This document shows, in pieces, positions 1-52,960 of a DNA stretch of 64,000 nucleotides. A program made the position numbers and the translations under genes. Every line of letters begins with the position of its first letter. Position 1 is the first letter of the stretch. The notes beneath the pieces are model-generated. The model saw nothing but the letters and a program-made list of their open reading frames with translations, searched no databases and was not told the origin of the DNA. Location of the stretch: contig JBHGNT010000004.1 of the NCBI GenBank assembly GCA_043228905.1, positions 10,106,001 through 10,170,000 on the forward strand. Reading direction: 5' to 3'. Source of the stretch: Azolla caroliniana (Eukaryota; Plantae; Polypodiophyta).

Positions 1-1562
1 AGTTTGGTGTCCAATTGGGCGAAAGTACCCGAGGCTTGTCGAGTACTAAGGAGGGAGCTAAGGATGGAGGATGGCTATGACAATAGAATAATGATAACAA
101 CCAAAGAACATCCAAAACAAGAATCGGGAACCCGAACGGATGTTGGCAAAGGAAAGGAGCCAAAATCTGGGATTGATGAACTGATAAAGGGAATGCGGGA
201 TCTACAACTCAAGTTCACAAAGCTTGAGAAGGGTGAAAGCTTGGGTGTGAGACAAAAGCCCAATGAAGGAGAAAAGGGTGAATTCATCCGTTGATGCATA
301 TGGTGCGATAGCACGAAGCACTAAAAAAGGGATTGTCAGAGCCATAAGGAAGCATTAGAAAGAAATGTTATCTTCTATCAAAATGGGAGAATACACTTCT
401 CGGAGACCCGAAAACCCCTAAAAACCCACTTTGGCAAAGGTGGGATGAAGAAAGTGATGGAGGACAAAGAGTCGATGAATGTTCAGGCAATGTACTATTT
501 CCGGATTGAAGGTTGATGATCCCCAAATTGGATCAGAATTCTGGGGGAAAGTGATAAAGTCTACTAACGACAAACGAGTCCAACCACAGGACTTACGGAA
601 GGTCGACGATGAGATCAGGAGTAGAACTGGGTGGAATGACCCAGTAGAGTCACTCAATGCAATCACCAAGATAGCAGGGGTGAATGCCCACGAAGTGACA
701 ACAGAAGAAAAGAGAAGGAGAACTGAGGAAGCGGGACTTTTAAGAAAACCTGAGACCCGAGAGCAAAAGACACGGGAAATGGAACGAGTTGCTGCGGAGG
801 CAATGAAAGAAGACAAAGGTAAGTAGAAGGTCGCCCCGTCATTCAAACTCGCCTCCGACATAGAAACATCCACCAACCTAAAGCATGCACTTGAATCTAG
901 GATTCTCGATAGTAAAGTTGAGTTAACACTCCGAGAAGTACTAGGGATCGCGAAGGTGGAATTTCATGAAGTGATCATTGATGTGATTCGTAGAAAAAGA
1001 CAAGTGATTTAAGAAATGGGTGGAGTAAATACCGTCACAATATGGGAGGAAGATGAAGATATGGAGACTGCATTGTTAGCCGGGGTATGGAGAGCTGACA
1101 TACAATGTAGTCATGAAGAGGAAAGTAGCCATTACACCCGCACACACTAGGATCGGGCGACAACCCAGGCTCCAGTCAGAATTGGTGATCAGATGGAACC
1201 GTGTGTGGCACTCATCGACCACGACTCCGAGATTAACATCATATCATCTGATTTCTACAATCCGGGGAGATGACCAATAGAAAGAAACCACGGGTGGAAG
1301 GTCAGAGCAACGACTGAGGTCGTGGAGGATTTATGTAGCGCATGCCCCAATATTAAAGTTACAATTGGGAACGTGTTGTCATGATGACACTTACATACGA
1401 TTTGGATTTACAAGGAATAGAACCCACAACCTTATTATATACGTGTGAAGTTCTTAACCATTGTAATGATATATTTATGTGTAAAGAATTTATAAACTAT
1501 ATAGAATATCATAAAGTATTCTAAAGTACTCTATGTTCTAGAATATTCGAGAGTGCTCTATA

Positions 1563-1585
1563 TTCTAGAACGTTCTAGAATATTC
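1563..1585. promoter_or_regulatory. Perfect 5-unit heat shock element in element B LTR (equivalents in C, G, H LTRs)
   Basis: TTCtaGAAcgTTCtaGAAtaTTC, ~50 bp upstream of TATAAATA at ~1634. Confidence 0.75.
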
Positions 1586-1746
1586 TAGCATAATCTTTAC
1601 TCTAAGATTTTCTAGAATACCCTAGTAAGACTTATAAATATGCATCTAATAATAAGGGATGAACCAATTTGGTTTAACGCCATTCTAGAGCTCCCTTGTT
1701 GTTTATTGTATTCCATCTTCTAGTGCAATACATTATCTTTACAATA

Positions 1747-1781
<35 letters not shown>

Positions 1782-1947
1782 TCTCTCAGTCTTGACAATA
1801 TCTTCTAGTGCAATACATTATCTTTACAATATACTCTCTCTCTCAGTCTTGACAGTTTGAAGCAAAATTTTCTTTCCTCCCTCATTTCTTTCTCTTCCAA
1901 GAACCTTAATAAGCTTCTTTCTTTCTTTTTCTCTTCCCTGGTAAGAT

Positions 1948-4900
1948 ATGGAGTCCGTGATCAAACAAGAATATATGCACGTCCTTTCTGAGCTCGACAT
2001 GCTCACGAATAAATTTGTGGCACTAGAGCAAGAAAATCAAAGGCTACTCGGGGACCTACAACATGTGAGTACCAAGAAAGCGCAACAATATGAAGAGTTC
2101 TCACAACGGGTTCGCCAACTCGAGGCGACTATATTATCATTACGAGAACAAGCGTCGGGGGTTCAAAACTACCCCAAAGAACCGAAGATTAGCCTCCTTG
2201 TTAAGTTTGATGGTACGAGGTCTCTATTTCGAGGCTTTTTGAATCAAGTAAGTTTGGTTACTCAGTTACATCCCAATCGATACCCAACGGAAGCTGCTCG
2301 TGTGGGATTAGTAGGAACCTTGCTAAGCGGTACAACACTAGCATGGTTTGCACCACTCTTCGAGAAGAAATCACCATTGTTGGAGGATTTTGAGGCGTTT
2401 GTTAAGGAGTTTCAAGCTAGCTTCGGAGATACCGACAACACTAGGACGACAATAAACAAGATTTGAAGGCTCCGACAAGGAGATCGTCCTGCATCGGCTT
2501 ACGTTGCCGATTTCCGTCTCTTGGCATGAGAGATATACCTTTGGATGAGGCGGCTCTGATGGATCAATTCCGTCAAGGTTTGTGTAATGATGTTAAAGAT
2601 CTTCTTCTTACCTTTCATGAAGATCCAAAATCTCTTACAGAGGCGATTAGTTGAGCTGCGCGATGTGATAATTGCCTATTTGAGCGACGCTCGGAGCGCC
2701 AACAAATGTTGCACTGTCAACCGGAACAAATGTACGCTTCTTTAATCGCAACACCCCCTAAACCCTACTTCAAGGTCCATTATTACTTCTAATAACATAA
2801 GTAAGCCTAGTAGTCCATGCCATGAGAATAGATTCAATGTCTTGAGCCAATTAGAGGATGTGTTAAACAAGTAAGTTCGGCCAAAATAGGAGCCATTTGG
2901 TTGGACAACCCTAGATATGTAGAGTTAGTTCCTAGTCGTGGTTCCATTTCATCAAATCAAGTTAGTCGAGTTTTTTCTTCACAAGTTGAGTTTAGCACAT
3001 CTACTTGTCATCGAGTCCTAGCCTCTGCCCTCTTCAATTCTGGAGCCAACTCTTGTTTCATGGATCGTGAGTTTGCATTAACACAAAAAGTCCTCTTGAA
3101 TAGCCTCCCTAACCCAGTATCCGTAGAAGTCATCGATGGTCGTCCCATAGCATCAGGTGATATAGTCGAAGAGTCCGAGCCAATTCGTGTACTTCTTGGT
3201 GATTTGGCAAGCATAATCTCATTCAACATTATTCGTAGTCCAGAACACCCATCAGTTCTAGGTCTCCCTTGGTAACTACATAACCCGAAGATTGATTGGA
3301 TGAAAAGAACAATTGAGGAATCCCAAGAAAAAAGAACTACACCCACATCTCTCAACACTCCAATATTTGATACTAGATCCCATAAGTTATCAACCATCTC
3401 TCTCCATCAGTTACGTGAGGATGGGGGGGAAAGAGGACATGTTCGTATTTGCAATCGTAGCAACTCCATCAAGCCCATCACCCATCTTACGAGAGCCGGA
3501 CGTCCAATTACCAAAAGAATATAAAGAGTTTTTAGACGTCTTTGATAAGGTGAAGGCAAATACACTGCAAGAGAATAGGCCATACGACTACCCTATTGAC
3601 TTACAACTAGGGAAAGAACCGCCATGGGGGCCAATTTATAATCTCTCACCCGTAGAGCTAGAGACTTTGAGGGAATATATGGATGAGAATCTGGCAAACG
3701 GATTCATCCAGCATTCTAGATCCCCTGCTGGTGCACCTATCTTCTTCGTTAAGAAGAAAAACGGGTCTCTTCGGTTGGTCGTGGATTATCGAGGGCTGAA
3801 CAAAGTGACTATCCGGAATAGATATGCTCTACCATTGATCTCGAACCTTTTGCAGTGCATACAATCTTAGTTCGGATTCATCTAGGGGATGAATGGAAAA
3901 CTTCTTTTCACACTCGTTATGGACATTTCGAGTATACCGTGATGCCATTCGGTTTCATAAATGCACATGCAGTGTTCCAGCATATGGCGAATGATATTTT
4001 TCGAGATTTTCTCGATATCTTCACTATAGTTTACTTGGACGACATTTTGATCTACTCGAAGACTAAAGAGGAGCATGATACACATGTTCGTCAGGTATTA
4101 CATCGACTACGAGAATATGGTCTCTACACAAAATTAGAAAGTGCAATTTTGCCTAGAATCAAGTGGAGTTTTTGGGGTATGGTGTATCATCAACTGGTAT
4201 CTCTATGGACCCAATGAAGGTTCAAACAATTTTAGATTTGTAAACACCCCTTTCAGTGCGTGATCTACAATGTTTTCTCGGGTTTGCAAATTTTTATCGA
4301 AAATTCATTAAAAATTATTCCAAGGTCGTGCTTCCACTCGCCCGACTCACACACAAAAATCAACCGTTCATATGGAATTCAAAGGCGACCGAGGCGTTCG
4401 AAAGTTTAAAACGAGCATTTACAACAACGTCTATTTTGGCTCATGTTGATCCCAAGAAATGCTTCATCCTTGAAGCTGATGCGTCCAACTTTGCATTAGG
4501 AAGTGTTCTATCGCAAACTGGAGATGACGGGCAACTACATCCTATTGCTTTTCATTCCCGAAAATTCGAAGCTGCAGAGATTAACTACGAGATCCATGAC
4601 AAAGAGCTTCTGGCAATTGTGGATTCTTTTCAACAATGGCGACATTTTCTGGAAGGTTCTTCTCAGCAGATCATTGTCTACAATGATCACAAGAACCTAA
4701 CATATTTCCAAAATGCTCGAGTCTTAAGTCGGCGACAAGCTCGTTGGGCGCAATTTTTGACTCACTTCGACTTTGTAATCATATATCGCCCAGGGATGCA
4801 GCAAGGAAAAGCGGATGCTCTTTCTCGACGCTCTTATATGGAACTTCGTCCAGGAGAACCAACTTTTGAGCATCAAAAACAAATCCTTTTGGGTTCAAAT

Positions 4901-6430
4901 CGCCTACGATTAATGACGGTTAATTCCATAACCACACCCAAGGATTCCACTCTTCTTGATTCCATTTGAGATCATATGGCTACTGATGTGTTCGTGAAAG
5001 ATGTTTTGGATCATATCATCCTGGATCGTGCTTCTTGCTCGAAGTCGCAAAACCCTCGTATTGAGTATAGGAAGTTCTATTGGCATGGTGGTTTTCTGTT
5101 TCGACAAAACCTACTGTATGTTCCTGATGGTCCCCCACGCTTGCAAGTCTTACAACATTGCCATGACACACCAATGGCTGGACATTTTGGAGTCACCAAA
5201 ACCCTAGAATTAGTTTCTTGGCAATATTGGAGGCCTCGATTTCGTCATTTTGTGGAGGAGTATGTCCGAAGTTGTGATACATGTTGTCGATCAAAGAGTG
5301 CTCAACACCGATCATATGGGTTACTACAACCACGTCTAATTCCTGAAAATCCTTGGAAGTCTATATCCTTGGATTTCATTACCGATCTCCCAGTTTCAAG
5401 GGGTTTTGATACCATTCTGACTATGGTCGATCGACTTACCAAAATGGCACATTTTTTGCCATGTACAAAGTCTATTACTAGTCAAGAGACAGTGGATCTA
5501 GTTATGCGGGAGGTGTTCAAGCATCATGGTCTCCCAGACGATATTAATAGTGATCGAGGTCCACAATTCATCTCAAAGTTCTGGAAGCACATGTTAAAAC
5601 TTCTCCGAGTTTTGGCTAAGCTTTCTTCGGGCTACCATCCAAAGACTAATGGCCAAACCAAGCGTACCAACTAGACTTTGGAGCAATATCTTCGTTGTTT
5701 CATCAACTATCAACAGGATGATTGGGTTGATTTTCTACACTTGGCGGAATTCACTTATAACGACTCAGTCCATTCGTCTACAGGATATTCGCCATTTTTC
5801 GCAAATACGGGTTCTCATCCTCGTTGGACGATGATTGAACACCCCGGAGTTCCTATCAACCTTGCTGCTACGGATCGTCTTAGTCGTCTCCAAGAAATTC
5901 ACGCTACCATTCTCTACAATTTGCGTGATGCTCAAAGTACATACAAGAGGATTGCAGACCGTCATCGCCTAGACTCCTCAGAAACGTTCCAAGTCGGGAA
6001 TCGTGTATGGCTTCTACAACACAACATCAAGACCACTAGGCCTTGTGGTAAATTAGATTACCAATGGTTTGGCCCGTACGAGATCACTAGTAAGATAAGC
6101 GATGTTGCATTTCGTCTTGGCCTCCCTCCTCACCCCGTGTTTCATGTCTCCCTTCTTGAACCTTACACCACAAGTTCAATTCCGGGACGTCTTACAACTC
6201 CCCCACCACTTGTAGAGTTTTTGGAAGAACCAGAATTTGAGGTTGTTGCCATTCTCGATTCCAAGATCGTGCGCAACAAGTTGTATTACTTGGTTAGGCT
6301 ATACACCCAATGATCAAACTTGAACCTGGAACAAATCTTATCAATGTTGCGGGCATGGTCACCGAATTTCATCGACAATATCCTCATAAGCCAGGTCCTA
6401 GTTCAACCCATACAACCCGTGATACGGGTC
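1948..6430 (+). pseudogene. gag-pol pseudogene of element B (gag, PR, RT, RNase H, INT, chromodomain)
   Basis: ORF fragments 1948-2466, 2901-3275, 3313-3870, 3855-4217, 4256-4969, 4976-5674, 5678-6313; gag zinc knuckle and a short RT stretch are missing relative to element C. Confidence 0.9.
2862..2914 (+). promoter_or_regulatory. Predicted -1 ribosomal frameshift signal (G TTA AAC + 6-nt spacer + stem/pseudoknot) at gag/pol junction of B; equivalent in C at 12888-12943 (-)
   Basis: pol is in the -1 frame relative to gag in both elements; 11-bp stem GUUCGGCCAAA/UUUGGUUGGAC; loop UAGG can pair with downstream CCUA. Confidence 0.75.
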
Positions 6431-6787
6431 GTCGAAGAAGGGGGTAAGTGTCATGATGACACTTACATACGATTTGGGTTTACAAGGAATCGAACCCACA
6501 ACCTTGTTATATACGTGTCAAATTCTTAACCATTGTAATGATATATTTATGTGTAAAAAATTTATAAACTATATAGAATATCATAAAGTATTCTAGAGTG
6601 CTCTATTTTCTAGAACGTTCTAGAATATTCTAGCATAATCTTTATTCTAAGATTTTCTAGAATACCCTATTAAGACTTATAAATATGCATCTAATAATAA
6701 GGGATGAACCAATTTGGTTCAACGCCATTCTAGAGCTCCCTTGTTGTTTATTGTGTTCCATCTTCTAGTGCAATACATTATCTTTAC

Positions 6788-6827
<40 letters not shown>

Positions 6828-9479
6828 CTTGATAGTATCTTTTAGTGCAATACATTATCTTTACAATATACTCTCTCTCTCAGTCTTGACACATGTCAGT
6901 AGATCAAAACTTCTTCGTCCAAGAGAATTCATTTTATCCAGTAATCCTAGGGCAACCGTACATGACAACAATACGAATAGAGACTAAAGTGATTGATAAC
7001 GGAGTGGCATTTGCCAGGATTCGGAGTCAGGACGGGAAGAGGTCGGTAAAGTTCCTTACTGTTCGACCAAATCATGAAAGGAATAAGGAGCATTTACGAG
7101 ATCATCCACTACGAGATGTGAGGGAGTTCGTACAGGATTTCTAGAGTAGGCCCTTACAAAAAGGGGCTATGATGGCCCAAGGGAGGTAAGAAGCCCCATT
7201 CATAGCATTCAAGATAAAGGTAAATTATATGTTGCGTTGGTAGATGGTGCAACTATAATAGAAGATTTCAAAGGAAATAAATTCTGAAAAATAGAAAAAG
7301 AATTACAAGGTAGAGGCATGATAGATTTAGAAGAAAAATTAGTGAATATATTTGAAGAATATTGTTTTAAAGATACAATAGGAGAGTTGGAGTCTCTAAC
7401 GATGGAAGATGATGAAGTTGACGTTATGGTAAACTCCATTGAGATGTTCAAAACCATCAAGGAGTATCTTCAAAATGAAGAAGCTCGAATAAACACAAAG
7501 TACAAAACAGTGGAGAAGAAGGTTCGGCCAACAACAACACCGCTTCCAGAAGACAGTGAAAAGATAATGAAGGAGGTGTCGACCGAGCCAATTCTTCGGG
7601 ATCCAAAGAGAATTGGGCACAAATTCACGCAAGAAACAATTAAGGAACTAAGAACGGGAGGGGGGGACTTCCTAATGCCTACGGAAGAAGCATAATTTAG
7701 AAAAATGCTAGGGCGGCATGGGAAAGCATTCTCCTTCAACCCTGAAAAAATTGGATGTGTGGATCCAAAAGTAGTTGAACCAATGGTCATCTTCACGATC
7801 CCACACATTCCACGAAATCTGAAGCCAATCCCAGTGCCAAGAGCAAGGATTCTACAATTAATCGAGATTCTAAAAGAGAAAGTGAAGATGGGCATCTTGG
7901 AACCATCAAACACTCCATACTCGAGTAGATGGTTTACGGTGCAAAAGAAGGATGGGTGGTTTCGATTCATTCAAGACATGCAACCTATGAATCAAGTTAC
8001 TATCCGGAATTCAAGAGTGGGGCCGATAGTAGATGAGTTTGCAGAGATCTACTCCATGTGTGATCTCTATTCCGGCTATGACCAATTCCAACGTGCAGTC
8101 GGTAGTCGAGATATCACCTCCATTAGGACACCTATTGGATTACTTCGGATGTGTACCCTGCCTCAAGGTGCGACCAACTCGGTCACTCACATGATGAATG
8201 GTATGCACAAAGTTCTCTGAGATTTTATTCCTCACATAATCATGCCTTTCTTGGATGATATACCCATTAAAGGATGTGAGGAAAGAATGAAGAATGAAGA
8301 ATTCGATAGTGGTAGATGTTGGAAGTTCGTTCGGGATCACATAGAAGATTGTGATAAAGTGTTTTCAAGACTAGAGGAGGTACACCTAACACTTTCGGCT
8401 CCAAAATCAATATTCGGGGTTCAAGAAGTACTAGTGGTAGGACATATGTGCGGGTCATATGGAAGGAAGCCAGCACCAGCGAAGATCAACGCAATACAGA
8501 ATATGAAAGAGGAATGCAACTTTGTATCTGAAGTTCGAGGTTCTTGGGTGCATGTGTCTTCTATTGTAGGTGGATTCCACATTATGCCCACATATCAGAT
8601 CCATTGTATCGACTATTAAGAAAAGGGGAATCATTCGAGTGGACAGAAGAACACTCAAATGCAATAAGATGACTGAAGGAGAATTTGGCAAAAGCTCCTG
8701 CTTTGAAACAACCTGACTACACCTGACTAATAATCCTATACCAGGCCGGATATTGGATACGTCGTTAGAGTGGTAAGCCGATATATGAGCAATCCCGGGG
8801 AAGAGAATTGGGCTGCCATGAAATGGATATTTCGGTACCTGAGAGGCACCACGAGCGTGTGTCTTTGTTTCGGCTCAGGTAACCCCACATTGGAAGGCTA
8901 CATGGATTCAGACATGTTGGCTGATGCAGATATCAGCCGATCCATGTCCGGATACATAATGACATATGTAGGGGGAGCTGTCTCATGACAATCGAGGTTG
9001 CAGAAGGCCGTGCCGTTGTCGACCGCGGAAGCTAAGTACATGGTGTCAGGAATAGTACTAAAGCAGAGATGGAATTAGTACTCAGAAGAGTAGTACTATT
9101 AGTACTAAGAGGACAGGACTGCGTAAGATTCCCGAGAGAGAGGAAGTGAGAAGAGTAGAGAGAGAGATAGGATGATGACAGCAACTCTTATATTATATGA
9201 AAGATAAGTACAAATCGGCTAAGAGTCTTAAGACTGGTGTTAAACCAATTTGGTTCAACATAATGTCTAGTGCCTTCTTTTATAGTGTTTTCAGGAGTAA
9301 TCCTGAAACTTCTAGAATGTTCCAGAGAAATCTGGAATATACATTACTTTCTTATAATAAAACATAAATGAAAATAATATCCTATGAATTACAATAGAGG
9401 GTGTGATGGTTAAGAGCTCGACCCATATACCATAAGGTAATGGGTTCGAGTCTTGCCATATCATGACAGTATCTCCCCC

Positions 9480-12400
9480 TTAAAGACGACGAGTGGAACG
9501 AGTCGGTGCTGATTGCGGACCGGGTTTGTCCGGATACTTTCGGTGGAAATCAGCAAGTAGATCCTGAGCATTGACAACATGCTCGACGGGTTCCCAAGTG
9601 CGTTCACTCGGACTATAACCAAGACAATCGACCAAATAATAAAGTTTGTTGCGAATAAGTTTGGAATCGAGGATGGCATCAACTTCATACTGCGGGCCGA
9701 CGTCCAACTCGAGTGGGGGCGGCGGTGGTGTAACACGATCGGGAATGGTGTTGGCTTTATAAGGTTCAAGAAGAGAACAATGGAAAACTGGATGTATTTA
9801 AAGCTGCGGAGGGAGATCAAGGCGGAAGGTGACATCATTAATCTTACCCGTAATACGGAAGGGACCGAGTCGTCGATAATCCAACTTGTCGCACGGTCGA
9901 GTAGTCTTGATGTGACGACGTAAGAGCCATAGTCGATCTCCGATGGCAAAAGAGGAGGGAATCCGATGACGATCCGCATAAGTCTTCTGTGTGTGTTGAG
10001 CATGACGAAGGTGAGTAGAGAGATCCATCTGGATCTTGCGTAGCCTCTCCAAATGATCCTCGGCACGAGGGTTGGTAGGTAGCTCCGGAGTGTCGATCAC
10101 CGACCATCGAGGATGGAAACCGGTATAAGCGAAAAATGGGCAGACCCGAGTCGAGGAGTGAATAGCATTATTATACGCAAACTCCGCAAAGTGGAGAATC
10201 TCGGCCCAATCGTCCTGTTGATAACTCAGGAAACACCAGAGATATTGACCCAGCGTTTGGTTTGTTCGTTCCGCCTACCCGTCGGTCTAAGGATGGTAGC
10301 CGGAGGAGAGGTTGCAGGAGACCTTGAGCATCTTGAAGAGATGCTGCCAAAATTTGGAGACAAATTGCGGGCCTCGGTCACTGATAATACTATCTGGGAG
10401 GCCATGATGCCGAAATACCTCACGCATAACAAGAGCGGCGGTCTCCTCGCTAGTGATGGCTTTAGTACACGGCACAAAATGTTCTTCAACAAGCCATATG
10501 GATGGTGTCGTGGCATCTTTGCTCGGCAGCAAGCATCACAGGTCCGAACGTAGTTGTCGACAAAACGATGCATGTGGGGCCACCAAAAAGATCGTTGCAC
10601 TAGCTCCAACGTCTTAGTACTACCGAAATGTCCCGCCGTATGGGTATCGTGACAATGTTGGACGATTTGAAGGTGACAGGAGCAATCGGGGACATATATG
10701 CGCTTTTTAAAGAATAACAAACCATCATGATATTCAAATTGTCGGTAGTCAATACCTGGTTGTTGAGACCGAGAACAAGATGCCCGAGAAGTATCAATGT
10801 GCGCCAGGATGTCTTGAGTAAAACTATCCGTCTTCAAGGTTGCACGTATGTCATCGGTAATCCGTGAATCCATCGGGGTGTGAAAAATCCGCGTCGTGTG
10901 CAATCGTGTTGGTCCCAAGATTACTTGCTTTTGATTATCAAATGTTGCGTCACCAGGACGAGGTGCAAGATATGAACGCCGTGATAGTGCATCTGCTTTT
11001 CCTTGCTGCTTCCCCGGTCGATATGTGATTTTGAAGTCGAAATGCGTGAGGAATTGCGCCCACCGAGCTTGCCGTCGATTTAGTACGCGAGCGTTCTGAA
11101 AATAAGCAAGATTTTTATGATCGCTAAAGACAATGACCTGATGTGGAGAGCCCTCTAAGAAATGCCACCATTGTACAAATGAATCCACGATGGCTAATAA
11201 CTCCTTGTCATGTATTTCGTAGTTGATTTCTGCGACATCGAATTTGCGCGAATGGAAAGCCACCGGATGCAACTCTTCTTTATCGCCTTGTTGAGAAAGG
11301 ATGCTACCAAGGGCGAAATCTGATTCGTCGGCCTCCATGATGAATGGTTTGCTTGTATCCACATGAACTAGAATCGGTGCTGATGTAAAGGCTTTCTTAA
11401 GATGCCGAAAAGCCATATTTGCTTCTACGGACCAAAGAAATGCTTGGCCCTTCTTTGTAAGTTGTGTGAGAGGTAAAATAATCTTCGAGTAATCCTGTAT
11501 AAACTTACGGTAGAAGTTAGCAAAACCTAGAAAACATTGTACATCTCGTACTGACCGTGGAATTTGCCACTCTAGTACAGTTTGGATTTTAGCTGGATCC
11601 ATGGCGATGCCCTTTGAGGAGATGACGTAGCCTAGAAATTCCACTTGCTTGCAGTCAAAGCTACATTTTTCTAGCTTGGCATAAAGACCATTCTCGCGGA
11701 ATTGCTTTAGTACTAATAGTACATGAGAATCGTGCTCTTCTTGGGTCTTCGAATAAATCAATAGATCATCCAGATAAATGATCAAACAGATATCCAAGAG
11801 ATCTCTGAATATATCATTTGCCATGTGTTGGAAGACTGCGGGTGCATTGGTTAGGCCAAATGGCATAACAGTATACTCGAAATGCCCATACCGCGTGCGA
11901 AAGACGGTCTTCCACTCATCTCCCGGTCGGATCCGCACGAGGTTATACGCTCCTCGTAGGTCGATTTTAGTAAAAAACTTGGCACCATTAACTCGCTCTA
12001 AAAGACTTGATATAAGAGGAAGTGCATACCTATTCCGGATGGTGACTTTATTCAATCCGCGGTAATCAACGACAAGATGAAGTGAGCCATCTTTCTTCTT
12101 GACAAAGAAGATGGGTGTACCGGCCGGAGATTTCGAATGGCGGATGAACCCGCTTGCCAAGTTCTCCTCTATATAGGCTCAAAGGACTTCTAACTCGGTG
12201 GGTGACAAGTTGTAAATTGGTCCCCATGGTGGCTCGGTTCCTGGTTGTAAATCGATGGGACAGTCATAGGGACGGTGATGAGGAAGGGTACCGGCTTTTA
12301 CCTTGTCAAATACATCGGCATAAGGATGATATTTTGCTGGAAGTTGTACTGAGGAGTCCTTCTTAATAGTGCTAGAAGGATGTACTGATATTGCAAATAG

Positions 12401-14088
12401 GAACATTGCCTCCTTGGGTCCTTCTTCGCATAGTTGATGGAGTGAAATGGTCGAAACTTGGTGAGTTGATTCTTGGGGTGGTCGATATCGGACTTCTCTT
12501 GTTCTCCAATCTATGGCTGGATTATGTAATTCAAACGAAGGTAATCCTAGGACAATGGGATGGTCTGGACTACTAATTATATTAAATGATATTACACACA
12601 CAAAACTACCTAGGACAACTTGAATGGGTTCTGATTCTTCTACAATATTCCCGGAAGCAATGGGACGACCATCAATGACTACTACAGATGCGGGACAAGG
12701 AAGTTTTCTTAAGGATATCTGAGAAGCTTGGGCAAAATTTCGATCCATGAAACAGGAATTAGCTCCGGAATCTAAAAGTGCTAGGACGGGTACTGGGGGA
12801 GTACTTTTAGTACTAACAATGACTTGGGCTAGGAACACATTGCTAACTTGCTTGGAAGGAATGGAACCACTAATGGGCTGTACAGATCTAGGGCTGTTGT
12901 CCAACCAAACGGCTCCTATTTTGGCTGGACTCAATCGTTTAACTCTTCATCTAATTGACTAAGGATTTCAAATTTATTTGAGATACTTGGGCTATTAGTA
13001 CTATGAATACTATCAAACACTCTATTAGTACTATTAATACTATCAGACACTCCTAAGGGAAGAATTGACTCGGATTTAGTACAGGCTACAATTTGATTTA
13101 CCTGTCTTCTTGGCCTATGGGGACAATTGATTGCGATATGCCTTGGTCCACCGCAATAAAGACATAATCGATTTGCACGTTGTCGTTGCTTTTCTTCTTC
13201 CGATAACGGGCTGCGTCGACGCATGGTATCGATCTCCATCGGTGTCGAAGTATTTGCTTGAGGTATATCTCGTGCAAACGGTCTAGCCGCCACTGCGGCG
13301 TAAGTGGGCTCCGGCCTAGCGCGTGGTATCTGTAATTGACGTTCCGAACGCCGTTCGAAAAGGCGGTTGTCACATCGGACCGCTCGACTGATTGCCTCCG
13401 TAAGAGACTTTGGTTCTTCGGGGAAGGTTAGAAGTAGATCTTTGACATCATTTCACAGGCCATAGCGAAACTGCTCCATTAGTGCTTGATCATCCCAGGG
13501 TATGTCGGAAGCGAGTAGGCGGAAATCCGCCGCGTAGGCAGAGGCTGGACGATCGCCTTGACGCAATCGCCGGATCTTGTTGATCGCCGTCCTGATGCTG
13601 TCGGTGTCTCCAAAGCAGGCTTTAAACTCACTAATAAAATCTTCAAAGTTATTAAGCAAGGACGATTGTTTTTCTAGAAGCGGAGCGAACCATGCTAAGG
13701 CTGAGCCGCTAAGCAACGTGCCTATTAAGCCGACTCGGGATGCATCAGTGGGGTATCGGGAAGGATGCATTTGGAGGACTAATCGTACCTGATTAAGGAA
13801 TCCCCTGAATTGCAATCGTGTTCCATCAAATTTCACAGGAAGTCCAATCTTCGGCTCTTTATGAAATCCTTGGGGACTTGATCCTTGTTGTTGCAATGCC
13901 GCTTCGAGTTGTTGCACCCGTAACACTAACTCCCCATGTTGTTGCTGCGTTTGTTGCTTTTCTAGAGCGATTTGTTGCAGATCCCCTATCAGCCGTTGGT
14001 TTTCTTGTTCCAGGGCAACAAACTTTTCTTTTAGGCACTGTAACTCGGAGAAAACGGATTGATATTCTTGGGCGCTAACAGTAGCCAT
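9480..14088 (-). pseudogene. gag-pol of element C (few stops, internal integrase deletion near 10480)
   Basis: ORFs 13453-14088, 12931-13293, 12179-12934 (LLDSGAN protease), 10226-12160, 9798-10100, 9480-9707. Confidence 0.9.
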
Positions 14089-14519
14089 AGTAGAGGGAAA
14101 AGGGTAGGAGGATGAGGGAGAACAACAAGTAGGTTGGAGGAAAGAGCAAATTGGTTCAAACTGTCAAGAATAGTACTAAAGCAGAGATGGAATTAGTACT
14201 AAGAAGGGTAGTACTATTAGTACTAAGAGGATGGGACTGCGTAAGATTCCCGAGAGAGAGGAAGTGAGAAGAGTAGAGAGAGAGATAGGATGATGACAGC
14301 AGCTCTTATATTATGTGAAAGATAAGTACAAATCAGCTAAGAGGCTTAAGACTGGTGTTGAACCAATTTGGTTCAACATAATGTCTAGTGCCTTCTTTTA
14401 TAGTATTGTCAGGAGTTATCCTGAAACTTCTAGAATGTTCCAGAGAAATCTAGAATATACATTACTTTCTTATAATAAAACATAAATGAAAATAATATCC
14501 TATGAATTACAATAGAGGG

Positions 14520-14573
14520 TGTGATGGTTAAGAGCTCGACCCATATACCATAAGGTAATGGGTTCGAGTCTTG
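14520..14573 (+). promoter_or_regulatory. tRNA-like Pol III A-box/B-box module, antisense in U3 of element C LTR
   Basis: GTGATGGTTAAG..AAGGTAATGGGTTCGAGTC with G18-G53 spacing of 36 nt; same module in B, G, H LTRs. Confidence 0.65.
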
Positions 14574-15169
14574 CCATATCATGACACATGGCCGCAGTAG
14601 AAGCCGGCAAGGAAATCGTATGGATGAAGGAGTTTATCAATGAGCGGAGAATTCGGCAAGAAGAATTCCGACTCAGAGTGCCATCCACCTTGTAAAAAAA
14701 TGCCGCCTACCACTCGAGGACAAAGCACATCCAACGGATGTATCATTGCCTCCGAGAGAGGGTAGAAGAAAGGGTGTTCGCTCTAGTGAAGGTCTGTGGG
14801 TACGAGTGCTATGTGCGGAAACGTGTATGGATCTCTAGTCAGTACTAGACAGCAAACAACACATACAGAAAATAGAATTGGCGTGGAGCCTTACGCTGAT
14901 GGAGCTTTAATGGAAAGCTTCTTATTACTTTGTACTTTCTCAGAGATACAATACTATGCTCGTCATCACTCATTACAATGTTAGGTATTCGCTTATATAC
15001 TAAGCCCTAACTTATTAACAAGTTCACACTCGGACGGATACAATTTGGAAGGAGTCGGCCTTTTTTGCCAACAAACTCCCCCATAAAAGGACTACTCTTT
15101 CTTGCATGTACAGATGTTTGGGGTTATCTCCCCCGTAAACCTAGATTACAAATTTAACTAGATCTTATG

Positions 15170-26854: not shown

Positions 26855-27392
26855 GTTTCTAATGCTGAAGCTCTTGTCGACGACTTCCATCACCGCTATC
26901 CAAACAAACCGGGCACTACATTGTTAACGTCGACTTCCACTCGTCGTTCTCGAAGGGGAGATAGTGTCATGAATACATAAACATCATGGCTTCACCTGTG
27001 CTTGAACCCAAGACCTTGTAATACATAATCAATAACCCCACCAATAAGATAACCCACGATCATATGAGATGATAAAAGCTACTTCTTGTAATACACTGAT
27101 TATTGTAAATACTCTGGAACATTCTAGAACATCTTAGAATATTCTAGGTGAAGAACATTCTAGAACATTATAGAAATCTCTAGGCTATTCTATGGGAACC
27201 TATAAATAAGGGCATAAATGAACTCTCAAATCAATTCGAATCAAAACCAGTCTTAAGCTCTCATCGCCTATGTTGTATCCATACTCATTATACTTTAATA
27301 CATTTATTCTTATCTTATCATTTCATTCCTCTCTTCTTGTGATCTCTTTATACCTTTATTCTGTCACTCTATCTTCTCTCTTGGTTGTGACA
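26855..27392 (+). mobile_element. Element G: 3' remnant of a Tcn1-like chromovirus (chromodomain tail, PPT, LTR 26965-27392)
   Basis: VSNAEALVDDFHHRYPNKPG, PPT GAAGGGGAGA, LTR TGTCATGA...TGTGACA, directly followed by element A integrase. Confidence 0.85.
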
Positions 27393-30826: not shown

Positions 30827-32555
30827 ATGATCATTAGGAAAGGGATGACGCTATTAGGACACAACAAGCGATACGAAAGTATCGGACAGAAAAAAAAAAA
30901 AAAACATCGTCAATTGTTGAAGGATACGAAAGCCACACTCACTAAAGGCAAAGATAGTATTGGTTGGTATATAGGTCTAAATATCACTGAGAATGAAAGT
31001 AATGAGACTACTATCATAGAGAGAAAGGTTGTAGACTATTTCAATGTTCAAACCAAGCACATCAGTAATGAAGACAAGAAGGTAGTACTTTATGGAATAT
31101 TAAATTATCCATCAATAAAGGAGTTAGTTGATTGTGATGGTCTTAATGCAAACATAACATCTGTACTAGTAAATAATCTCCGTAACAGTTTCGTATCCAT
31201 GAGCAGGTCAGAAGATGATCTTGTCTTAAAAAGGTCTAGTCTAATGATGTTACTTAATAGTGACGTTGACGATATTAACATCATTGTGCTATCCAAGGTA
31301 ATTGGTGTTAGTAGAAAAAGTGTGTACAATACATTGAACCGGATAGTTTCCTCAAGTGAAGGAACTAGTCTGCTAAAGCTAACAACAAGATGTAAGCCAA
31401 TGACACCCATAACATCAGAAATCAATGATATAATCACAATATTTTGGACTAATGAGAGTAGGGTTTCACCCAATAAGAAGGATTTATGTAGGAAACGTGT
31501 TGGAAGGAGTCAATACGAGGAGCATCCCATTCATCTTCTTGATGTACCTCAGGTATTTACATTTATCTCAACATTTGTTTTGACTATTGAGCTTAGTTAG
31601 TTAGCTTATTAGCTACCTCTGAATATGATCATACCCGAATAGCTAATTACCTACCTTAGAATATGACCATAGCTAACTAGCTACCAGTAATAGCTAATTA
31701 GCTACCAAAATAGCTAATTAGCTCCCTAAGTATATCGAACATAACTATTTAGCTACCATAATAACTAATTAGCTACCATTCATAGCTATTTAGCTACCAC
31801 AATAGCTAATTAGCTGCCTTTAACAATAGCTAATTAGCTACTAGAATTGCTAATCCTCTATTGGAATAGCTATTGTACTAAACTATGATAGTAGCTAATT
31901 AGCTACCATTTAGCTAATTAGCTATTGTATTAAACTATGGTAGTAGCTAATTAGCTATCACTTAGCTAATTAGCTACTCAACTAAAGTATGGTAGTAGCT
32001 AATTAGCTAAGGTTTAGCTAATTAGCTATTGTACTAAATTATGGTAGTAGCTAATTAGCTAAGTGGTAGCTAATTAGCTACTGTACTAAACTATGGTAGT
32101 AACTAATTAGCTACCACTTAGTCATAGAGCTAATCAATATGTCCATTTTATTACGCAGGTCGATTTATTTATTAGGTTCAGGCGAAATGCATCCAAATAT
32201 CAAAGTTCAACTACGAACATTTGAGTCTCTTAAGCCACACTTTGTGAGACGCTTGAAGGATCGATACACATGTTGTTGCATTTACCATGTACAAATGGGT
32301 TTTCTCAAGGACTCTGTTAATCTACTACGTCACCATAGCACCTCCCTAACAAATGCAGTTTGCACTTGTGTGTGCCCAATTTGTCGATTGAGCCCGCATG
32401 AGCACTGTAAATCATCTAAGCATGTTATCTCTTCCATGAGTTGTCTTTTAGATTTAGTATTGTGTCCGACAGAAACTGAGGCCATCTTCCACAGTCATAA
32501 ATGTGTCATGGGTTTATATCAAGATTGTGGCCCTAGTAGATTTAGGTGGTGTCCA
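30827..32555 (+). pseudogene. Truncated DNA-transposase-like gene with one intron (31553-32158), superfamily unresolved
   Basis: HTH-like LSKVIGVSRKSVY, GT..AG intron, then (after a 1-nt frameshift) HPNIKVQLRTFESLKPHFVRR..RYTCCCIYH and further Cys/His clusters; cut off by a LINE fragment at ~32556. Confidence 0.55.
31595..32135. repeat. Array of palindromic TAGCTAATTAGCTA units forming an imperfect fold-back inside the intron
   Basis: Many copies of the 14-bp perfect palindrome; left half units end ..AGCTACCA, right half units begin TGGTAGTAGCT.. (inverted arrangement). Confidence 0.85.
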
Positions 32556-33428
32556 AATTATGGGTTTATTTGGCAACAACTACAAAATATTGCATTGATG
32601 CAAGGTCACTTACCTCTACAAATAGGAGAACAACCATGGCTTGATTGGTGTTTAAAGTGTCAAACGTCATTGTTACAAGTGACTACTAATCTTTTGTATC
32701 ATTGCTCTGTTGAGTCTCTTGGATGGTTATCATCTAAGGCTGAAGAAGAATGGAGATTACACAAATCTGATCATGGGTGGTGGCAAATCATACAATGTAG
32801 TTGGCATTCTAAATTGCCACTTGTGGCAATGGTCTTCATTTGGAGAGTTTTGATTGGAGGATTGCCTTTGGGACTAGCTCTAAAGCGTCATGGATTAGCA
32901 ATGGGTGATTGTTTCTTTTGCACTATTCAAATGGAAGATAGTACTCATTGATTTATACAATGTTTGATTGCTTGTTAAATTTGGAGTTACATTTCTCAAA
33001 TTTGGCAAGTTTTATCACAGTGTTCTTTGACACCGTGTCAATGGGTGTTTGCACAATTTACACAGGTTGACCCAAAATCAAAGATGGAGATCGTTTTTCT
33101 ATTTCTGAGATATTGGGGATTGCGTCATAATTGGATTATGCACAACATTTTTGTATTCGACGGTAGACATGGAGTGAAAGCATATTTAAGAAAATTGAAG
33201 GGAGTACTAATGTGGCAATTTTCTTTATTGGAGCAAGTGGAAATTCTTTCCTTGGTGGAGTGTTCGTCTTGCCTATTGGCAATTCAACATGTTCCACTAC
33301 CCGTGTAGTGTAGTTAATGGGTGACCATACTCCATTGTCACACCTATTGTAAGTAGTGTTTTTTACACACATTTATTAATATAATTGTGTGTTTTCACCA
33401 AAGAGAGAGAGAGAGAAAGAGAGAGAGA
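32556..33428 (+). mobile_element. 5'-truncated copy of the L1/Tx1-like LINE (zf-RVT end, 3' UTR, (GA)n tail)
   Basis: Near-identical to the reverse complement of 51396-52262; ends CACCAAA(GA)n. Confidence 0.9.
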
Positions 33429-34215
33429 AAATGAGTGCAGACAACCAAAAACTCTATTACAGTAATGCTTAGTACATTACACACAACTTAAGTGCACTTT
33501 ATATATACATGCCCTTCTGTCAAGGTTGTTATGAAGTACTGACATGTACTTCAATGTTCTTAAAGTAGCATCTGACACGGATTGCCTACGTTGGACCTAT
33601 TTAATAAAATAGGTCTACATGACACATGTGACGTTTCAGACAACTTCCTTAGCTGCTCCATCATCCGGATTCGACATTCACTCTGGCATGCAGATCCGAT
33701 ATCCGGCATATGTTCCAGAAACTTGGCCTAGCAAATCGGATCGATTCCAGTTTGACCTACCGGCTTGTCCAACCGATCCGGCCCATGTTGATCGTGCTCG
33801 ATCAACAATTATAAATCATACTCCTAGAATTTATGGCTGACTTACAAGTGTTTTCTAATGTAGGACCAAACCCTACGAGATGTATACTTATAAAACTTGC
33901 TAGCTTTAGATGATTACAAAACTAATATTCTTAGATCATATCATAGATATTGTTCTGAGATTTGAATCAAGCCATAGAGATGGTGTTAGAGTCTAACTAA
34001 TTAAGTAAGAAAAAGATAAGGAATTATTGACCAAAGACCGTAAAGATGGGTGCCAAACCACCCATCCACCCCCTAGCAATGACATGAGACAGACCTAAAC
34101 CTCCTCGATATCCCATACCATTGAGGCTAGATGTGAGCCGTACCTTGGGTCCTGCGAGGATCGCACGTGCTTAGCTAACAAGATCCATAATCATAGAAGT
34201 GTAGAAGGAAAGATG

Positions 34216-34989: not shown

Positions 34990-35192
34990 ATACTCCCGTT
35001 GGTAAGGTTGCCCAATGGAGACCATGTGGTCATGGGTTCAACCCCTACATTCCAGAGTGGCATCTAGTGAATTAAGAGATATATAAGGATTATATAATAG
35101 AGAGGTGAGGAAGTTGGGTTTCAAACCCACAATGTAGTGCTTATAGTGCTAACAACTTACCACTAGGGTAAGGTAATTACTATAAAAAAAAA
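34990..35192. mobile_element. Putative tRNA-derived SINE-like insert with two convergent A/B-box modules
   Basis: TGGTAAG..35 nt..GGTTCAA on +, TAGTGGTAAG..35 nt..GGTTTGAA on -, poly(A) 35184-35192, flanking direct repeat (GA)n-GATTCCMTACTCC at 34984 and 35203. Confidence 0.45.
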
Positions 35193-39245: not shown

Positions 39246-41067
39246 ATGCGAAGGGGGAAATCTTTCAAAGACTCTCTCAAATGTCTAGAAGCAGATATTC
39301 AACATGCCAACACTCTGTAAGTTCCCCATTAGTATGTATAGCTATATTCCCTATTTCTATGTACATCTTTGTTCCGTAGCTTCCTCCTTCAAATTTTTTT
39401 ATCCTTTTCCTTGTTTTATTTCCCTGGCTTTGAGTTATTCATAGATAAACAATCTACTAAATGAAATTGTATTGAAAAAAATTATTTCGATTCATTGCAA
39501 GTTGCAACCTTCTTGGTTCAAATGCTTGTGGGCTGATTTAAATTTTCAAAATTGACTGGTTTTTTCTTTTGTACTATTGAACTTTATTGTTAAAGACTGC
39601 CTATCTGAACATTCAAACGTGAAGGAGAAATGCAGTGTATGGTTAAATGTGTATATCAAATTCGGAAACACGTGACAAGAGAAACAGTGGATGGTTATAC
39701 AGAATATTTGATGTATAAGAAATGTTGGATGGGATAGGGCCTTGGAGTTCCCGAGGGATTACGATGGAGCATGTCTACAAATGAGGCTTTCATATAGCCG
39801 AGCTGCCCGCTTTTTCCTGTTTTTGGTTCGTTGGACTGATTGTAGCCTTGCTGGTGCACTTGGTCTTCTCCGCATTCTCATATACAAGGTATATGTTCAT
39901 ATTTTGAACACATTCTACAAGTCTATACTTGCCTACATGTTTGTCTGTCATCATAGTCTACAGCATTCTCTTCATAAATAAACACATGCTATGTTTTTTT
40001 AAGGTATACAAAGATGGAACAACTACAATGTCTATATATGAAAGGAAATTGAGCCTTCGAGAGTTTTACGGTATGAGTTCTGTTTCTCTCTTGTCTTCCC
40101 CCTTCTTTCATGAGTTTTGTGCTGTTTTTTTCTTTGAATTTCATTATCCTAAGAAGGCGACACTTTTTTGAATAATTCGTCCCACGTCTTGAATCGTGGC
40201 AGCCTACGTTTTACCTTCATTACAGCAATTACAAGGAGGTCTAGCTGAAATGGAAGTATTGAGACAGAAGGCAAGTTGTGTGGAGATGTACAAGAAAAGT
40301 TCAGGTATGAGGGTGGATTTAGATGTGGAATGGGAGAAAGAGTGTGGGATTTGTATGGAGAACAATGCCAAAGTTGTCTTGCCAGATTGCAACCATGCAA
40401 TGTGTCTCGAATGCTTCCGAGATTGGTAAGTCGACAGTTTTGTGTTTGAGCCCTAAATCCTAAATCATCAACCAGAAAAGGCCTAGAAGACCATCATCAT
40501 AATTCTATTCCGTCCAAGGGATTTTAGCTATTACTTTTGGGTTTACCATTGCAACTCTAAATCTTTAATGCAACCCTAAACCTGATAGTTCTAATGAACA
40601 TAATTTTGTGACATATTTTCCATGTCTTGTAAATTTCATACTTGTAAGCGGCTTTAATCCCCAATGTACCTATTTCTCTGTGATCTTGAACCTGAACCTA
40701 GAGACCCTAATTTACGAATCCACACCTAACCTTAACTCTAAAACACCCTAATTTTATAAAAGATCATAATGATAGATTTCTTTATCACTTGCTAAAATTT
40801 GAGGACTTTGAAGTTGAAACATGCCAATGATTTCATGGCAGGCACTCTCGTTCACAGTCATGCCCTTTTTGTCGTGACAACTTGAAGCGAGTGAATTCAA
40901 GGGATCTTTGGGTTTTCACGGAGTTGTCGGAGGTCCAAGACACTTCCACATTGACAAAAGACAACCTAAAGAGGCTTTTCATATACATCGATAAGTTACC
41001 TCTCTTAGTGTCAGAAAGTGTCTTTGCAATATATGGTTCAAACAAAAAAACATTGGATTGTAGATAA
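39246..41067 (+). CDS. AIRP2: C3HC4 RING E3 ubiquitin ligase, AIRP2-like; exons 39246-39316, 39738-39888, 40004-40070, 40203-40425, 40842-41067
   Basis: Spliced protein MRRGKSFKDSLKCLEADIQHANTLALEFPRDYDGACLQMRLSYS..WTDCSLAGALGLLRILIYKVY..CGICME..LPDCNHAMCLECFRDWHSRSQSCPFCR..DLWVF; all introns GT-AG with consistent phases. Confidence 0.93.
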
Positions 41068-51237: not shown

Positions 51238-51368
51238 AGATAGAAAATATATTCACGTGAAGAAGGCGAAGAAGAAAGAAAGTCGTGAAGCCCCAAGAAG
51301 AAGAAGAAGAAGAAGAAGAAGAAGAAGAAGGAAGCAAGAAAGTCTTGGACATGGACATTGGGCCCCCT

Positions 51369-51399
<31 letters not shown>

Positions 51400-52960
51400 G
51401 GTGAAAACACACAATTATATTAATAAATGTTGTGTGAAAAAAAACACTACTTACAATAGGTGTGACGATGGAGAATGGTCACCCACTAACTACACTACAC
51501 TACATGGGTAGTAGTGTAACATGTTGAATTGCCAATATACAAGACGAACACTCCACCGAGGAAAGAATTTCCACTTGCTCCAATAAAAAATAAATTGTCA
51601 CATTACTACTCCCTTCAAATTTTCGTAGATATGCTTTCACCTCCATGTCTACCGTCGAATACAAAAGCGTTGCGCATATTCCAATTATGACGCAATATCC
51701 CCAATATCTCAGAAATAGAAAAACGATGTCCATCTCTGATTTTGGGTCAACCTGCGTAAATTGTGCAAACACCCACTGTCTAGGTGTCAAAGAACACCGT
51801 GATACGACTTGCCAAATTTGAGAAATGTAACTCCAAATCTGACAAGCAATCAAACATTGTATAAATCGATGAGTACTATCTTCCATTTGAATAGTGCAAA
51901 AAAAAGCAATTACCCATTGCTAGTCCACGACGCTTTAGAGCTAATCCCAAAGGCAATCCTCTAATCAAACCTCTCCAAATGAAGACCTTTGCTACAAGTG
52001 GCAATTTAGAATGCCAACTATATTGTATGATCTGCCACCACCCAGGATCAGATTTGTGTAATCTCCATTCTTCTTCGGCCTTAGATGATAACCATCCAAG
52101 AGACTCAATAGAGCAATGATACAAAAGATTAGTAGTCACTTGTAACAATGATGTTTGACGCTTTAAACACCAATCAAGTCATGGTTGTTCTCATGTTTGT
52201 AGAGGTAAGTGGCCTTGCATCAATGCAATATTTTGTAGTTGTGGCCAAATAAACCCATAATTAGACAGAATGCATAATAATTGTCACGCTTCAGCAAACC
52301 CCAAAATTCTTTGAGATGGAGCCTCAACTATATCTCCCACCTCTTTGACCCCCAAATGAAACAAACGATTAAATTGAGAGTGCAATCTCTCCTTACTTGG
52401 CCAACATAATAACCAAGAAGACACAAGCAACTCTTTTTGCAAAGAATTACAATGCTCTCTACTAGATGATGGTTTCCATACACATAACAAGAGTGCTTCT
52501 TGCCATGAGGTAACCAAGTGTTGAACACATGTAGAGCCTGGAATCCTAAGTGAAATACATCTATTCAGTAATTGTCACCATGAAACCTTAATCGTTGTCC
52601 TCCCATGTGTTAAACCCTTGTTCTTAATGAAATATTGAACAATAGATATCCATGGTTGTGAGTTTGAACACATATCTTGTAATAATGAAAATCTACGAGC
52701 CATCATATGCTTAGATAAGTTCAATATTCCAGCTCCCCCCAAGCGCTTAGGGGTTGCTAGATGATTCCATGCAACCCAAGTGATTCCCATCTTATCCCTC
52801 TTCTTCCACAATAAATATCGAAGAGGTTGCAAAATAGAATGCAAAGCCTCCTTTGTCCATGGCAACAATGGCAAATAATATAATATCATGGGTTCCATAA
52901 TACATTGTACAACCTTCAAGCGTACAAGAAATGGCCAAGATTGTGACTTCCAATACATGA

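Follow-up and report, generated by a model that had tools for sequence, protein, structure and literature searches.

Every Tcn1-like chromovirus of the 64-kb window (the window being the whole stretch of Azolla caroliniana DNA analyzed here, 64,000 nucleotides) carries a tRNA-like A-box/B-box module at approximately nucleotides 17-95 of the LTR, that is, at the outer edge of U3 and antisense to the element. There are four such elements, B, C, G and H, and the count is 4/4, since tblastn and blastn searches of the window found no Tcn1-like pieces besides them. The first-pass annotation of this DNA had placed the module at seven stretches, and all seven were located at the coordinates it gave, each antisense to its element (Table 1). 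The boxes and their spacing are conserved compared to the flanks, and the cloverleaf and terminator have been lost; consequently, the boxes look like sites that are selected as DNA. Judged from the letters alone, it is very probable that the boxes are under selection of some kind. The explanation that we tentatively favor, at somewhat less than an even chance, is that the head of a tRNA gene or SINE was captured and then kept as a candidate TFIIIC boundary beside the Pol II promoter of the element.

The LTRs are built in one order. From the outer end, TGTCA is followed by the antisense module, an AT-rich tract, TTCTAGAA-type repeats, the TATA box, the start-site motif, R and U5. The TTCTAGAA-type repeats, which we take to be heat-shock-element-like, form arrays between the module and TATA at 1519-1620, 6591-6662, 14428-14455, 27122-27175 and 58567-58664. 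Element C codes for gag, protease, RT, RNase H, integrase and a chromodomain in broken reading frames, and a polypurine tract lies immediately upstream of its 3' LTR.

Table 1. Positions of the elements, their LTRs and the A/B modules in the window. G18 and G53 are tRNA position numbers.
Feature	Position	Strand	Module stretch (strand)	G18	G53	Remarks
Element B	1377-6891	+				~5.5 kb; gag-pol domains
B 5' LTR	1377-1854	+	1411-1465 (-)	1459	1423	One B-box mismatch
B 3' LTR	6449-6891	+	6483-6537 (-)	6531	6495	
Element C	9044-14586	-				Full-length Tcn1-like chromovirus; ~5.5 kb; 5-bp target-site duplication
C 3' LTR	9044-9468	-	9402-9455 (+)	9408	9444	96.7% identity to 5' LTR
C self-priming site	14147-14159	-				13 nt complementary to LTR 14358-14370
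C 5' LTR	14162-14586	-	14520-14573 (+)			TGTCA end, module, AT-rich tract, TTCTAGAA-type repeats (14455, 14435), TATA (14402), start-site motif near 14360
A box, C 5' LTR	14517-14527	+				11-nt form, T8 to G19; antisense to element
Variable-loop/T-stem-like stretch, C 5' LTR	14553-14561	+				
B box, C 5' LTR	14562-14570	+			14562	G53 to C61
G chromodomain tail	26855-26964	+				Only remnant of G besides the 3' LTR
G 3' LTR	26965-27392	+	26995-27048 (-)	27042	27007	Truncated element
Element H	54645-58806	-				
H 3' LTR	54645-55143	-	55066-55120 (+)	55070	55106	C-to-T change in B box
H 5' LTR	58444-58806	-	58729-58780 (+)	58733	58769	U3 and R; 3' part interrupted at 58444
Fifth LTR (probable)	63393-64000	-	(+)	63945	63980	Antisense module with full A box; cut by window end

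The spacing from G18 to G53 is 36 nt in B, C and H and 35 nt in G, as reported earlier. Counted from the LTR start, G18 lies at nucleotide 83 in B, 61 in C, 78 in G and 74 in H, and G53 lies at nucleotides 47, 25, 43 and 38, respectively. A strict scan of the window for both boxes returned 5 matches, compared to a mean of 0.03 (maximum 1) in 30 shuffles; 4 of the 5 are inside the B, C, G and H LTRs, and the remaining one is at 35001. The motif originally written for the module, TGGT(TAAG) followed by AGGTnnTGGGTTCRA, is present but idealized, as G reads TGGTGGGG and H has AAGTC replacing AGGT. GTTCRA is intact in 5 of the 7 window LTR copies, with a single B-box mismatch in the B 5' LTR (1423) and in the H 3' LTR (55106). 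The A box is in turn fuller than had been noticed: across seven LTRs (B, C, G, H and three loci from outside the window, L009, L011 and L012), position 9 is a purine in 7/7, position 11 is a pyrimidine in 7/7, and A14 is present in 6/7. In the 11-nt register, G10 is kept in just two of these seven, with its loss seen in B, G, H and L011. It should also be mentioned that the families, described previously as four divergent ones, are four in number but are not independent: the B and H LTRs are 70% identical over 177 nt including the module, and the B-C and C-H pairs align at 77-78% across it.

All four elements are of the chromodomain-bearing Ty3/gypsy type, as judged from pol in B, C and H and from the chromodomain tail and 3' LTR only in G. 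The domain order in H is RT, RNase H, integrase, SH3 and Chromo, the last with an E value of 0.00048, a match below the curated cut-off; PF00385 is present in close relatives. When the aromatic-cage positions of the chromodomain are presumed to be Y-W-Y, H keeps the cage, element C has its W replaced by C, and B is degenerate. No tRNA primer site was found after the 5' LTR. The bases following the 5' LTR are the complement of an LTR stretch approximately 30 nt behind the TATA box, with an exact match of 13 nt in C, 12 nt in L009 and 11 nt in L011; in B, no exact match of at least 6 nt was found. According to the accessible text of PMC6317226, the Tcn1 clade is marked by self-priming and by an aromatic cage in the chromodomain. 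Our tree took in no named Tcn1 reference, so the label "Tcn1-like" is based on self-priming, the chromodomain cage and the layout. Read by eye from supplement S3 of PMC2864245, Selaginella SM-Tcn1 has its TATA box, start-site motif and post-LTR sequence laid out alike. In the part of that paper available to us, self-priming is described as not evident in SM-Tcn1; by eye, within its nucleotides 395-510, the bases after the 5' LTR complement the LTR behind the TATA box, as they do in C, L009 and L011.

The earlier annotation was confined to the window, and the module recurs beyond it, in 3/3 further LTRs to which protein similarity, and not the motif, had led. A protein search gave 4074 relatives. 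Scanning 3 of the 64 parts of a metagenome collection with an integrase alignment contributed the best 80 of its 595 loci, and protein scans added 10 further loci (5 distant ones from viral contigs and 5 from prokaryote genomes), for a total of 90. The LTR start could be read by eye in 20 of the 90 loci, and LTR-start scoring covers these 20, with the other 70 outside it. The module lies at the same place and on the same strand in L009 and L011 (68% to H) and in L012 (56%), with spacings of 35, 35 and 36 nt, respectively. None of the 10 loci from viral contigs and prokaryote genomes has it. Scored against the published consensus TRGYnnAnnnG / GWTCRAnnC (PMC4333407), the LTRs of B, C, G, H, L009, L011 and L012 reach 12-14 of 14 positions, and for none of them did more than 2 of 100 shuffles equal the score; none of 17 other chromovirus LTR starts, 4 of which are short (61-121 nt) and several of which are related, reaches at least 12. 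The B box GWTCRAnnC has 7/7 positions in six of the seven LTRs and 6/7 in G, and the A box TRGYnnAnnnG, located 35-36 nt from it, has 5-7 of its 7 positions. When whole loci were scanned for the motif (85 loci, 584,579 bases), 3 of the 6 matches were at the LTR starts of L009, L011 and L012. A profile made from B, C, G and H and run over 13 loci with filters off placed three LTR starts on top, those of L011 (44.2 bits), L009 (12.5 bits) and L012 (8.9 bits); with default filters and all 90 loci, L011 was its sole find. The E values in the unfiltered run (0.015 for L009 and 0.2 for L012), together with the 13.2 bits scored by a module at 34997, outside the Tcn1 LTRs, count against the boundary reading.

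A FastTree phylogeny of 92 sequences (3 window elements, 29 loci and 60 proteins), rooted on L004, places B, C, H, L009 and L011 in one clade (support 1.0). L012 falls in a separate clade (1.0), which is sister (0.95) to L010/L028/L044/L046. In LTR-start scoring, the latter four loci have a tandem-repeat U3 without the module, and the U3 of SM-Tcn1, inspected by eye in supplement S3 of PMC2864245, is a tandem array without an A/B module. The module is not general to Tcn1, as SM-Tcn1 and the L010/L028/L044/L046 clade are without it. Since it is present in both module-bearing clades and absent from the sister clade and from SM-Tcn1, it is either ancient and was lost upon U3 replacement, or it was gained twice.

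Across the families, the alignment of the seven LTRs bears out the view that the boxes and their spacing are kept rather than a tRNA structure. In mean column identity, the B box (0.78), the 3' half of the A box (0.71) and the variable-loop/T-stem stretch (0.68) stand above the spacer (0.41), the downstream flank (0.39), the 5' half of the A box (0.39) and the upstream flank (0.34). The mean of just 0.39 for the A-box 5' half is a point against the boundary reading. The anchor columns owe their conservation to the way the alignment was built; when they are left out, the mean is 0.69 for 14 tRNA-consensus columns and 0.38 for the 62 others (0 of 20000 permutations), and in the five less related LTRs the values are 0.71 and 0.35, where the 14 columns were picked after the identities had been seen, the families are related, and the columns are not independent. 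The distance from A box to B box (35-36 nt) is as tight as that from the TATA box to the start-site motif (43-45 nt); A58 lies 19-41 nt from the LTR end, and the LTR start lies 185-263 nt from the TATA box. Indels are found on either side of the module, but between the boxes the length shifts by 1 nt only. The TTCTAGAA-type repeats occur in B, C, G, H, L011 and L012 and not in L009, whose U3 has an E2F-like site; in L009, the enhancer has thus been swapped and the module retained. E2F-like, like MYB-type and W-box-type below, is a motif name that we have given to U3 words by presumption.

Variation within family C is compatible with the boundary reading, yet it does not set the boxes apart, the B box being no more invariant there than the LTR end or 14470-14500. 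Contigs of five sequencing runs (four organisms) were aligned to the C LTR at 80% identity, a cut-off that favors conserved pieces, and contig depth is not taken here as a measure of copy number. Counting sites that vary at 2% or more, the near flank has 10 of 16, the A box 6 of 11, the five positions past the A box 1 of 5, the spacer 6 of 20 and the variable-loop stretch 3 of 9. None was counted in the B box (0 of 9), at the LTR end (0 of 16) or in positions 14470-14500 (0 of 31, with two in another alignment). No indel at 2% or more was found in 14470-14600 in four runs. The common variants T8 (14517), A14 (14523) and C48 (14557) are in the direction of the tRNA consensus, from which the window copy is further away. 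At 14517, where the window copy has G, T makes up 1.00, 0.92, 0.46 and 0.25 of the depth in four runs, A14 makes up 0.36-0.62, and C at 14557 makes up 0.94-0.98.

The module is not a real tRNA gene: ARAGORN returned 0 genes in the window, and no tRNA was among 20 Rfam matches with E up to 10. The tRNA model gives the L009 module 15.8 bits, compared to a gathering score of 29, and finds no match in the L011 module. No tRNA gene that might name the donor was found in 93 loci. The annotation had further described the cloverleaf stems as unconserved. This is true of the cloverleaf as a whole, in which 46.9% of cells pair and 470 of 500 shuffles pair at least as well, but less so of the T-stem, in which 68.6% pair, largely as G-U. 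The first T4 after A58 comes at 16 nt in L009, 44 nt in H and 74 nt in L012; in B, C, G and L011 (4/7), a search extending 120 nt beyond the LTR end found none, and the T4 is inside the LTR in 1/7. A Pol III terminator is not common to the families.

In family C (14524-14577 and 9406-9459), the spacer is approximately an inverted copy of the B-box side, so that one long hairpin can form on either strand, with z values of -4.6 antisense and -6.2 sense. Its paired spacer bases at 14535-14542 are invariant in four runs. Pairing between the A side and the B side was matched by 1 of 300 spacer shuffles in C, 9 in H and 10 in L009; there was no excess in B (89 of 300), G (292), L011 (143) or L012 (106). 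The long hairpin was rejected as a general feature, excess pairing being present in 3/7 LTRs only.

The origin and action of the candidate TFIIIC boundary may be envisaged as follows. The head of a tRNA gene or SINE would have inserted backwards just after the polypurine tract, in U3 of the 3' LTR, once or twice. In each replication cycle, the 3' LTR is the template for both copies of U3, so that reverse transcription would have carried the module into both LTRs of every descendant. Selection would act on the transposing lineages, since inserted copies decay. TFIIIC would recognize the double-stranded boxes with no need for an RNA product; that the boxes and spacing are kept while the fold, spacer and terminator are lost points to recognition of DNA rather than to an RNA product. 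TFIIIB would occupy the AT-rich tract between the module and the enhancer, and the boundary would separate the flanking DNA from the Pol II enhancer and TATA box of the element, each new copy bringing its own. The backwards orientation would turn any Pol III away from the TATA promoter. In addition, the chromodomain may steer the element into heterochromatin, where an outer boundary at the 5' LTR would be a gain. A Pol III complex can also damp an adjacent Pol II promoter, and the effect on the promoter of the element may be either protecting or damping.

In yeast, TFIIIC sites act as heterochromatin barriers, and insulation is stronger with TFIIIB (PMC3395662, accessible text). Such TFIIIB-boosted blocking may be the reason why the A box and the spacing are kept. 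Strict spacing is not demanded by a barrier, however, since yeast barriers need the B box alone and the Pol III boxes of Alu work at 50-bp spacing (PMC4333407). Another point against the boundary reading is that Tcn1-type elements persist without the module, namely SM-Tcn1 and L010/L028/L044/L046. A literature search found no report of TFIIIC barrier activity in plants. The wider claim would be that heterochromatin-seeking autonomous plant chromoviruses of two Tcn1 lineages bear a portable TFIIIC/TFIIIB insulator, made of A and B boxes, at each LTR edge, retained even where the neighboring enhancer is exchanged, and that their thousands of LTRs and solo LTRs seed boundaries throughout a large non-seed-plant genome; this may be so, but we regard it as doubtful.

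Both boxes are kept at the tRNA spacing, which would suit initiation better than bare TFIIIC binding, and AT-rich DNA lies at the position expected for TFIIIB. These features, together with the family C hairpin, the excess pairing in C, H and L009, and the precedent of simian foamy virus LTRs that hold A/B-box Pol III miRNA genes (PMC3993851, accessible part), would fit an outward-firing Pol III promoter whose RNA matters. The transcript from the 3' LTR would cross the polypurine tract in the antisense direction and reach into the end of pol, and in some families a hairpin would yield small RNAs that tune the element or the host. From the sequence features at hand, we consider such a promoter unlikely: neither the terminator nor the fold is common to the families, the spacer is near saturation (0.41), and antisense RNA from the 3' LTR should promote silencing of the element itself.

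If the module were the remnant of a SINE or tRNA copy that entered U3 long ago in antisense and still awaits erasure, or the outcome of separate insertions in a host where such heads abound, a neutral relic of this kind would lose the boxes and the spacer equally; here, the boxes stand at 0.68-0.78 and the spacer at 0.41. The flanking indels on both sides, set against a 1-nt change between the boxes, also argue against a neutral relic, as does the agreement in place and strand between two clades with ~56% integrase identity, and we hold it to be quite improbable. Several observations are nevertheless in its favor. Additional modules are found away from Tcn1 LTR starts, both in the window (35001, 35161 and 63671) and within L011, which suggests that donor heads are common; the B box has decayed in 2 of the 7 window copies; related clades are without the module; and the variation in family C does not set the boxes apart.

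A role in integration would have TFIIIC sit on the cDNA, 25-47 nt from its U3 end, and tether or orient the integration complex, or would make the integrated boxes landing pads for elements with a preference for Pol III sites. The module invariably adjoins the U3 end, and Ty3, DGLT-A and Skipper-2 target their insertion via Pol III factors (PMC5006619, accessible text). The distance to the LTR end is, however, variable (19-41 nt), and a foreign insertion between the A box and the TATA box was seen in 0 of 10 LTR copies (7 in the window and 3 loci, a small sample read by eye), so that a sequence-based case for integration has little chance of being right. There is likewise a slim probability that the module consists of Pol II enhancer words of MYB type and W-box type, its likeness to a tRNA promoter being due to ancestry or chance and another factor doing the selecting. 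The sense-strand word WAACCA overlaps the A box in 5 of 7 LTRs, and stress-type repeats are also present in U3; but G and L012 have no WAACCA at that place, TGAC[CT] lies inside the module in just 2 of 7, and the invariant GTTCRA, the A44-G45-G46-T47 context and the 35-36 spacing are left unexplained. The B-box word resembles the primer-site word, and its use as a second self-priming site was rejected, as the A box and the spacing would remain unexplained.

The nearest precedent is Helenus (TRIMp3; Kojima 2024, PMC10886601), which the first-pass annotation had overlooked. Our literature search found no report of A and B boxes in the LTRs of autonomous Tcn1-type elements or other chromoviruses, with most subscription papers and the Repbase reports lying outside its range. 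As far as the accessible text of PMC10886601 goes, Helenus is similar in having tRNA-derived boxes A and B in both LTRs (here in B, C and H), with conservation centered on the boxes and mostly without a working tRNA. Its origin is proposed to be a SINE inserted into an LTR, and one family is known from Selaginella (PMC10886601, same text). On the other hand, Helenus is non-autonomous, 311-1263 bp long and mostly tRNA-primed, whereas the elements described here are ~5.5 kb long with gag-pol, self-priming and a TATA promoter. The boxes of Helenus, where three LTRs could be compared, are on the sense strand and are thought to transcribe the element, whereas here they are antisense at the U3 edge and point outward from the 5' LTR. 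By size, autonomy and orientation, the present elements are not members of Helenus. The same source expects the autonomous partners to use Pol II and remarks that "not a few" Repbase LTRs have tRNA-like pieces, its analysis being of TRIMs alone; in view of this remark, the phenomenon may have been seen but left undescribed.

Other systems are alike in part. The Cassandra and Ajax TRIMs have long kept the Pol III promoter of a small-RNA gene in their LTRs, as described in the accessible text of PMC10886601, but that promoter is of the 5S type (A, IE and C boxes), the elements are non-autonomous, and the promoter makes the RNA of the element, as shown for Cassandra. Elements of the Tcn1 clade share with ours the non-seed-plant type of Ty3/gypsy, the chromodomain, self-priming and the lack of a tRNA primer site, whereas Pol III boxes go unmentioned in the accessible portions of PMC2864245 and PMC6317226. 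Yeast ETC/COC loci and tDNA barriers, as far as they are covered in the available text of PMC3395662, are TFIIIC sites that act as barriers or insulators with or without transcription. In contrast to our modules, which belong to mobile elements and are known from sequence, these are host loci, mostly with a B box only, for which binding and barrier function have been shown. The miRNA cassettes of foamy-virus LTRs are A/B-box Pol III units in the LTR of an autonomous retroelement, and they have terminators, conserved hairpins and defined RNAs (PMC3993851, accessible part), whereas here a terminator and a hairpin are not common to the families.

It is an open question how a promoter stays usable in LTR elements inserted into heterochromatin, and a built-in TFIIIC boundary, if true, would offer one concrete answer. 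The range of LTRs with Pol III boxes would then reach from tiny non-autonomous elements, which copy themselves by means of the boxes, to full elements, in which they are pointed outward, and Tcn1-like LTRs would be a large extra source of TFIIIC sites in the plant genome. Even as a relic, the module would serve as a clade marker and would be a likely cause of false tRNA pseudogene calls.

Further modules and repeats were noted in and around the material. Two facing A/B modules (35001 on the + strand and 35161 on the - strand) lie amid GA-repeat tracts at 34990-35175, outside the Tcn1 LTRs; they may be the heads of SINEs or the two ends of a small element. The LTR-like stretch at 63393-64000 has a second module on its own strand behind the TATA box (G18 63671, G53 63635), perhaps a SINE insertion, and it has an E2F-like site in common with the L009 LTR. 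In L011, a weak antisense A/B-like match is found within gag-pol in both pol copies (1019-1053 and 6332-6386, - strand), which may be due to chance. Among the prokaryote genomes, L089-L093 are chromovirus integrase matches (38-53%) in contigs of five genome bins and are probably eukaryotic DNA that was binned in. When viral contigs were scanned for a polypurine tract joined to an LTR start, the 3 loci obtained had no pol match and were dismissed as chance. Beside the break in the H 5' LTR, 88 bp (58331-58418) are 98.9% identical to 40310-40397, 18 kb away. An inverted pair of a piece of ~880 bp (32556-33431 and 51368-52262; 92% identity) overlaps a zf-RVT (LINE-type) frame. Finally, a palindromic tandem array of ~52-bp units at 31632-32137 can form long hairpins and has weak matches to miRNA families below the cut-off.
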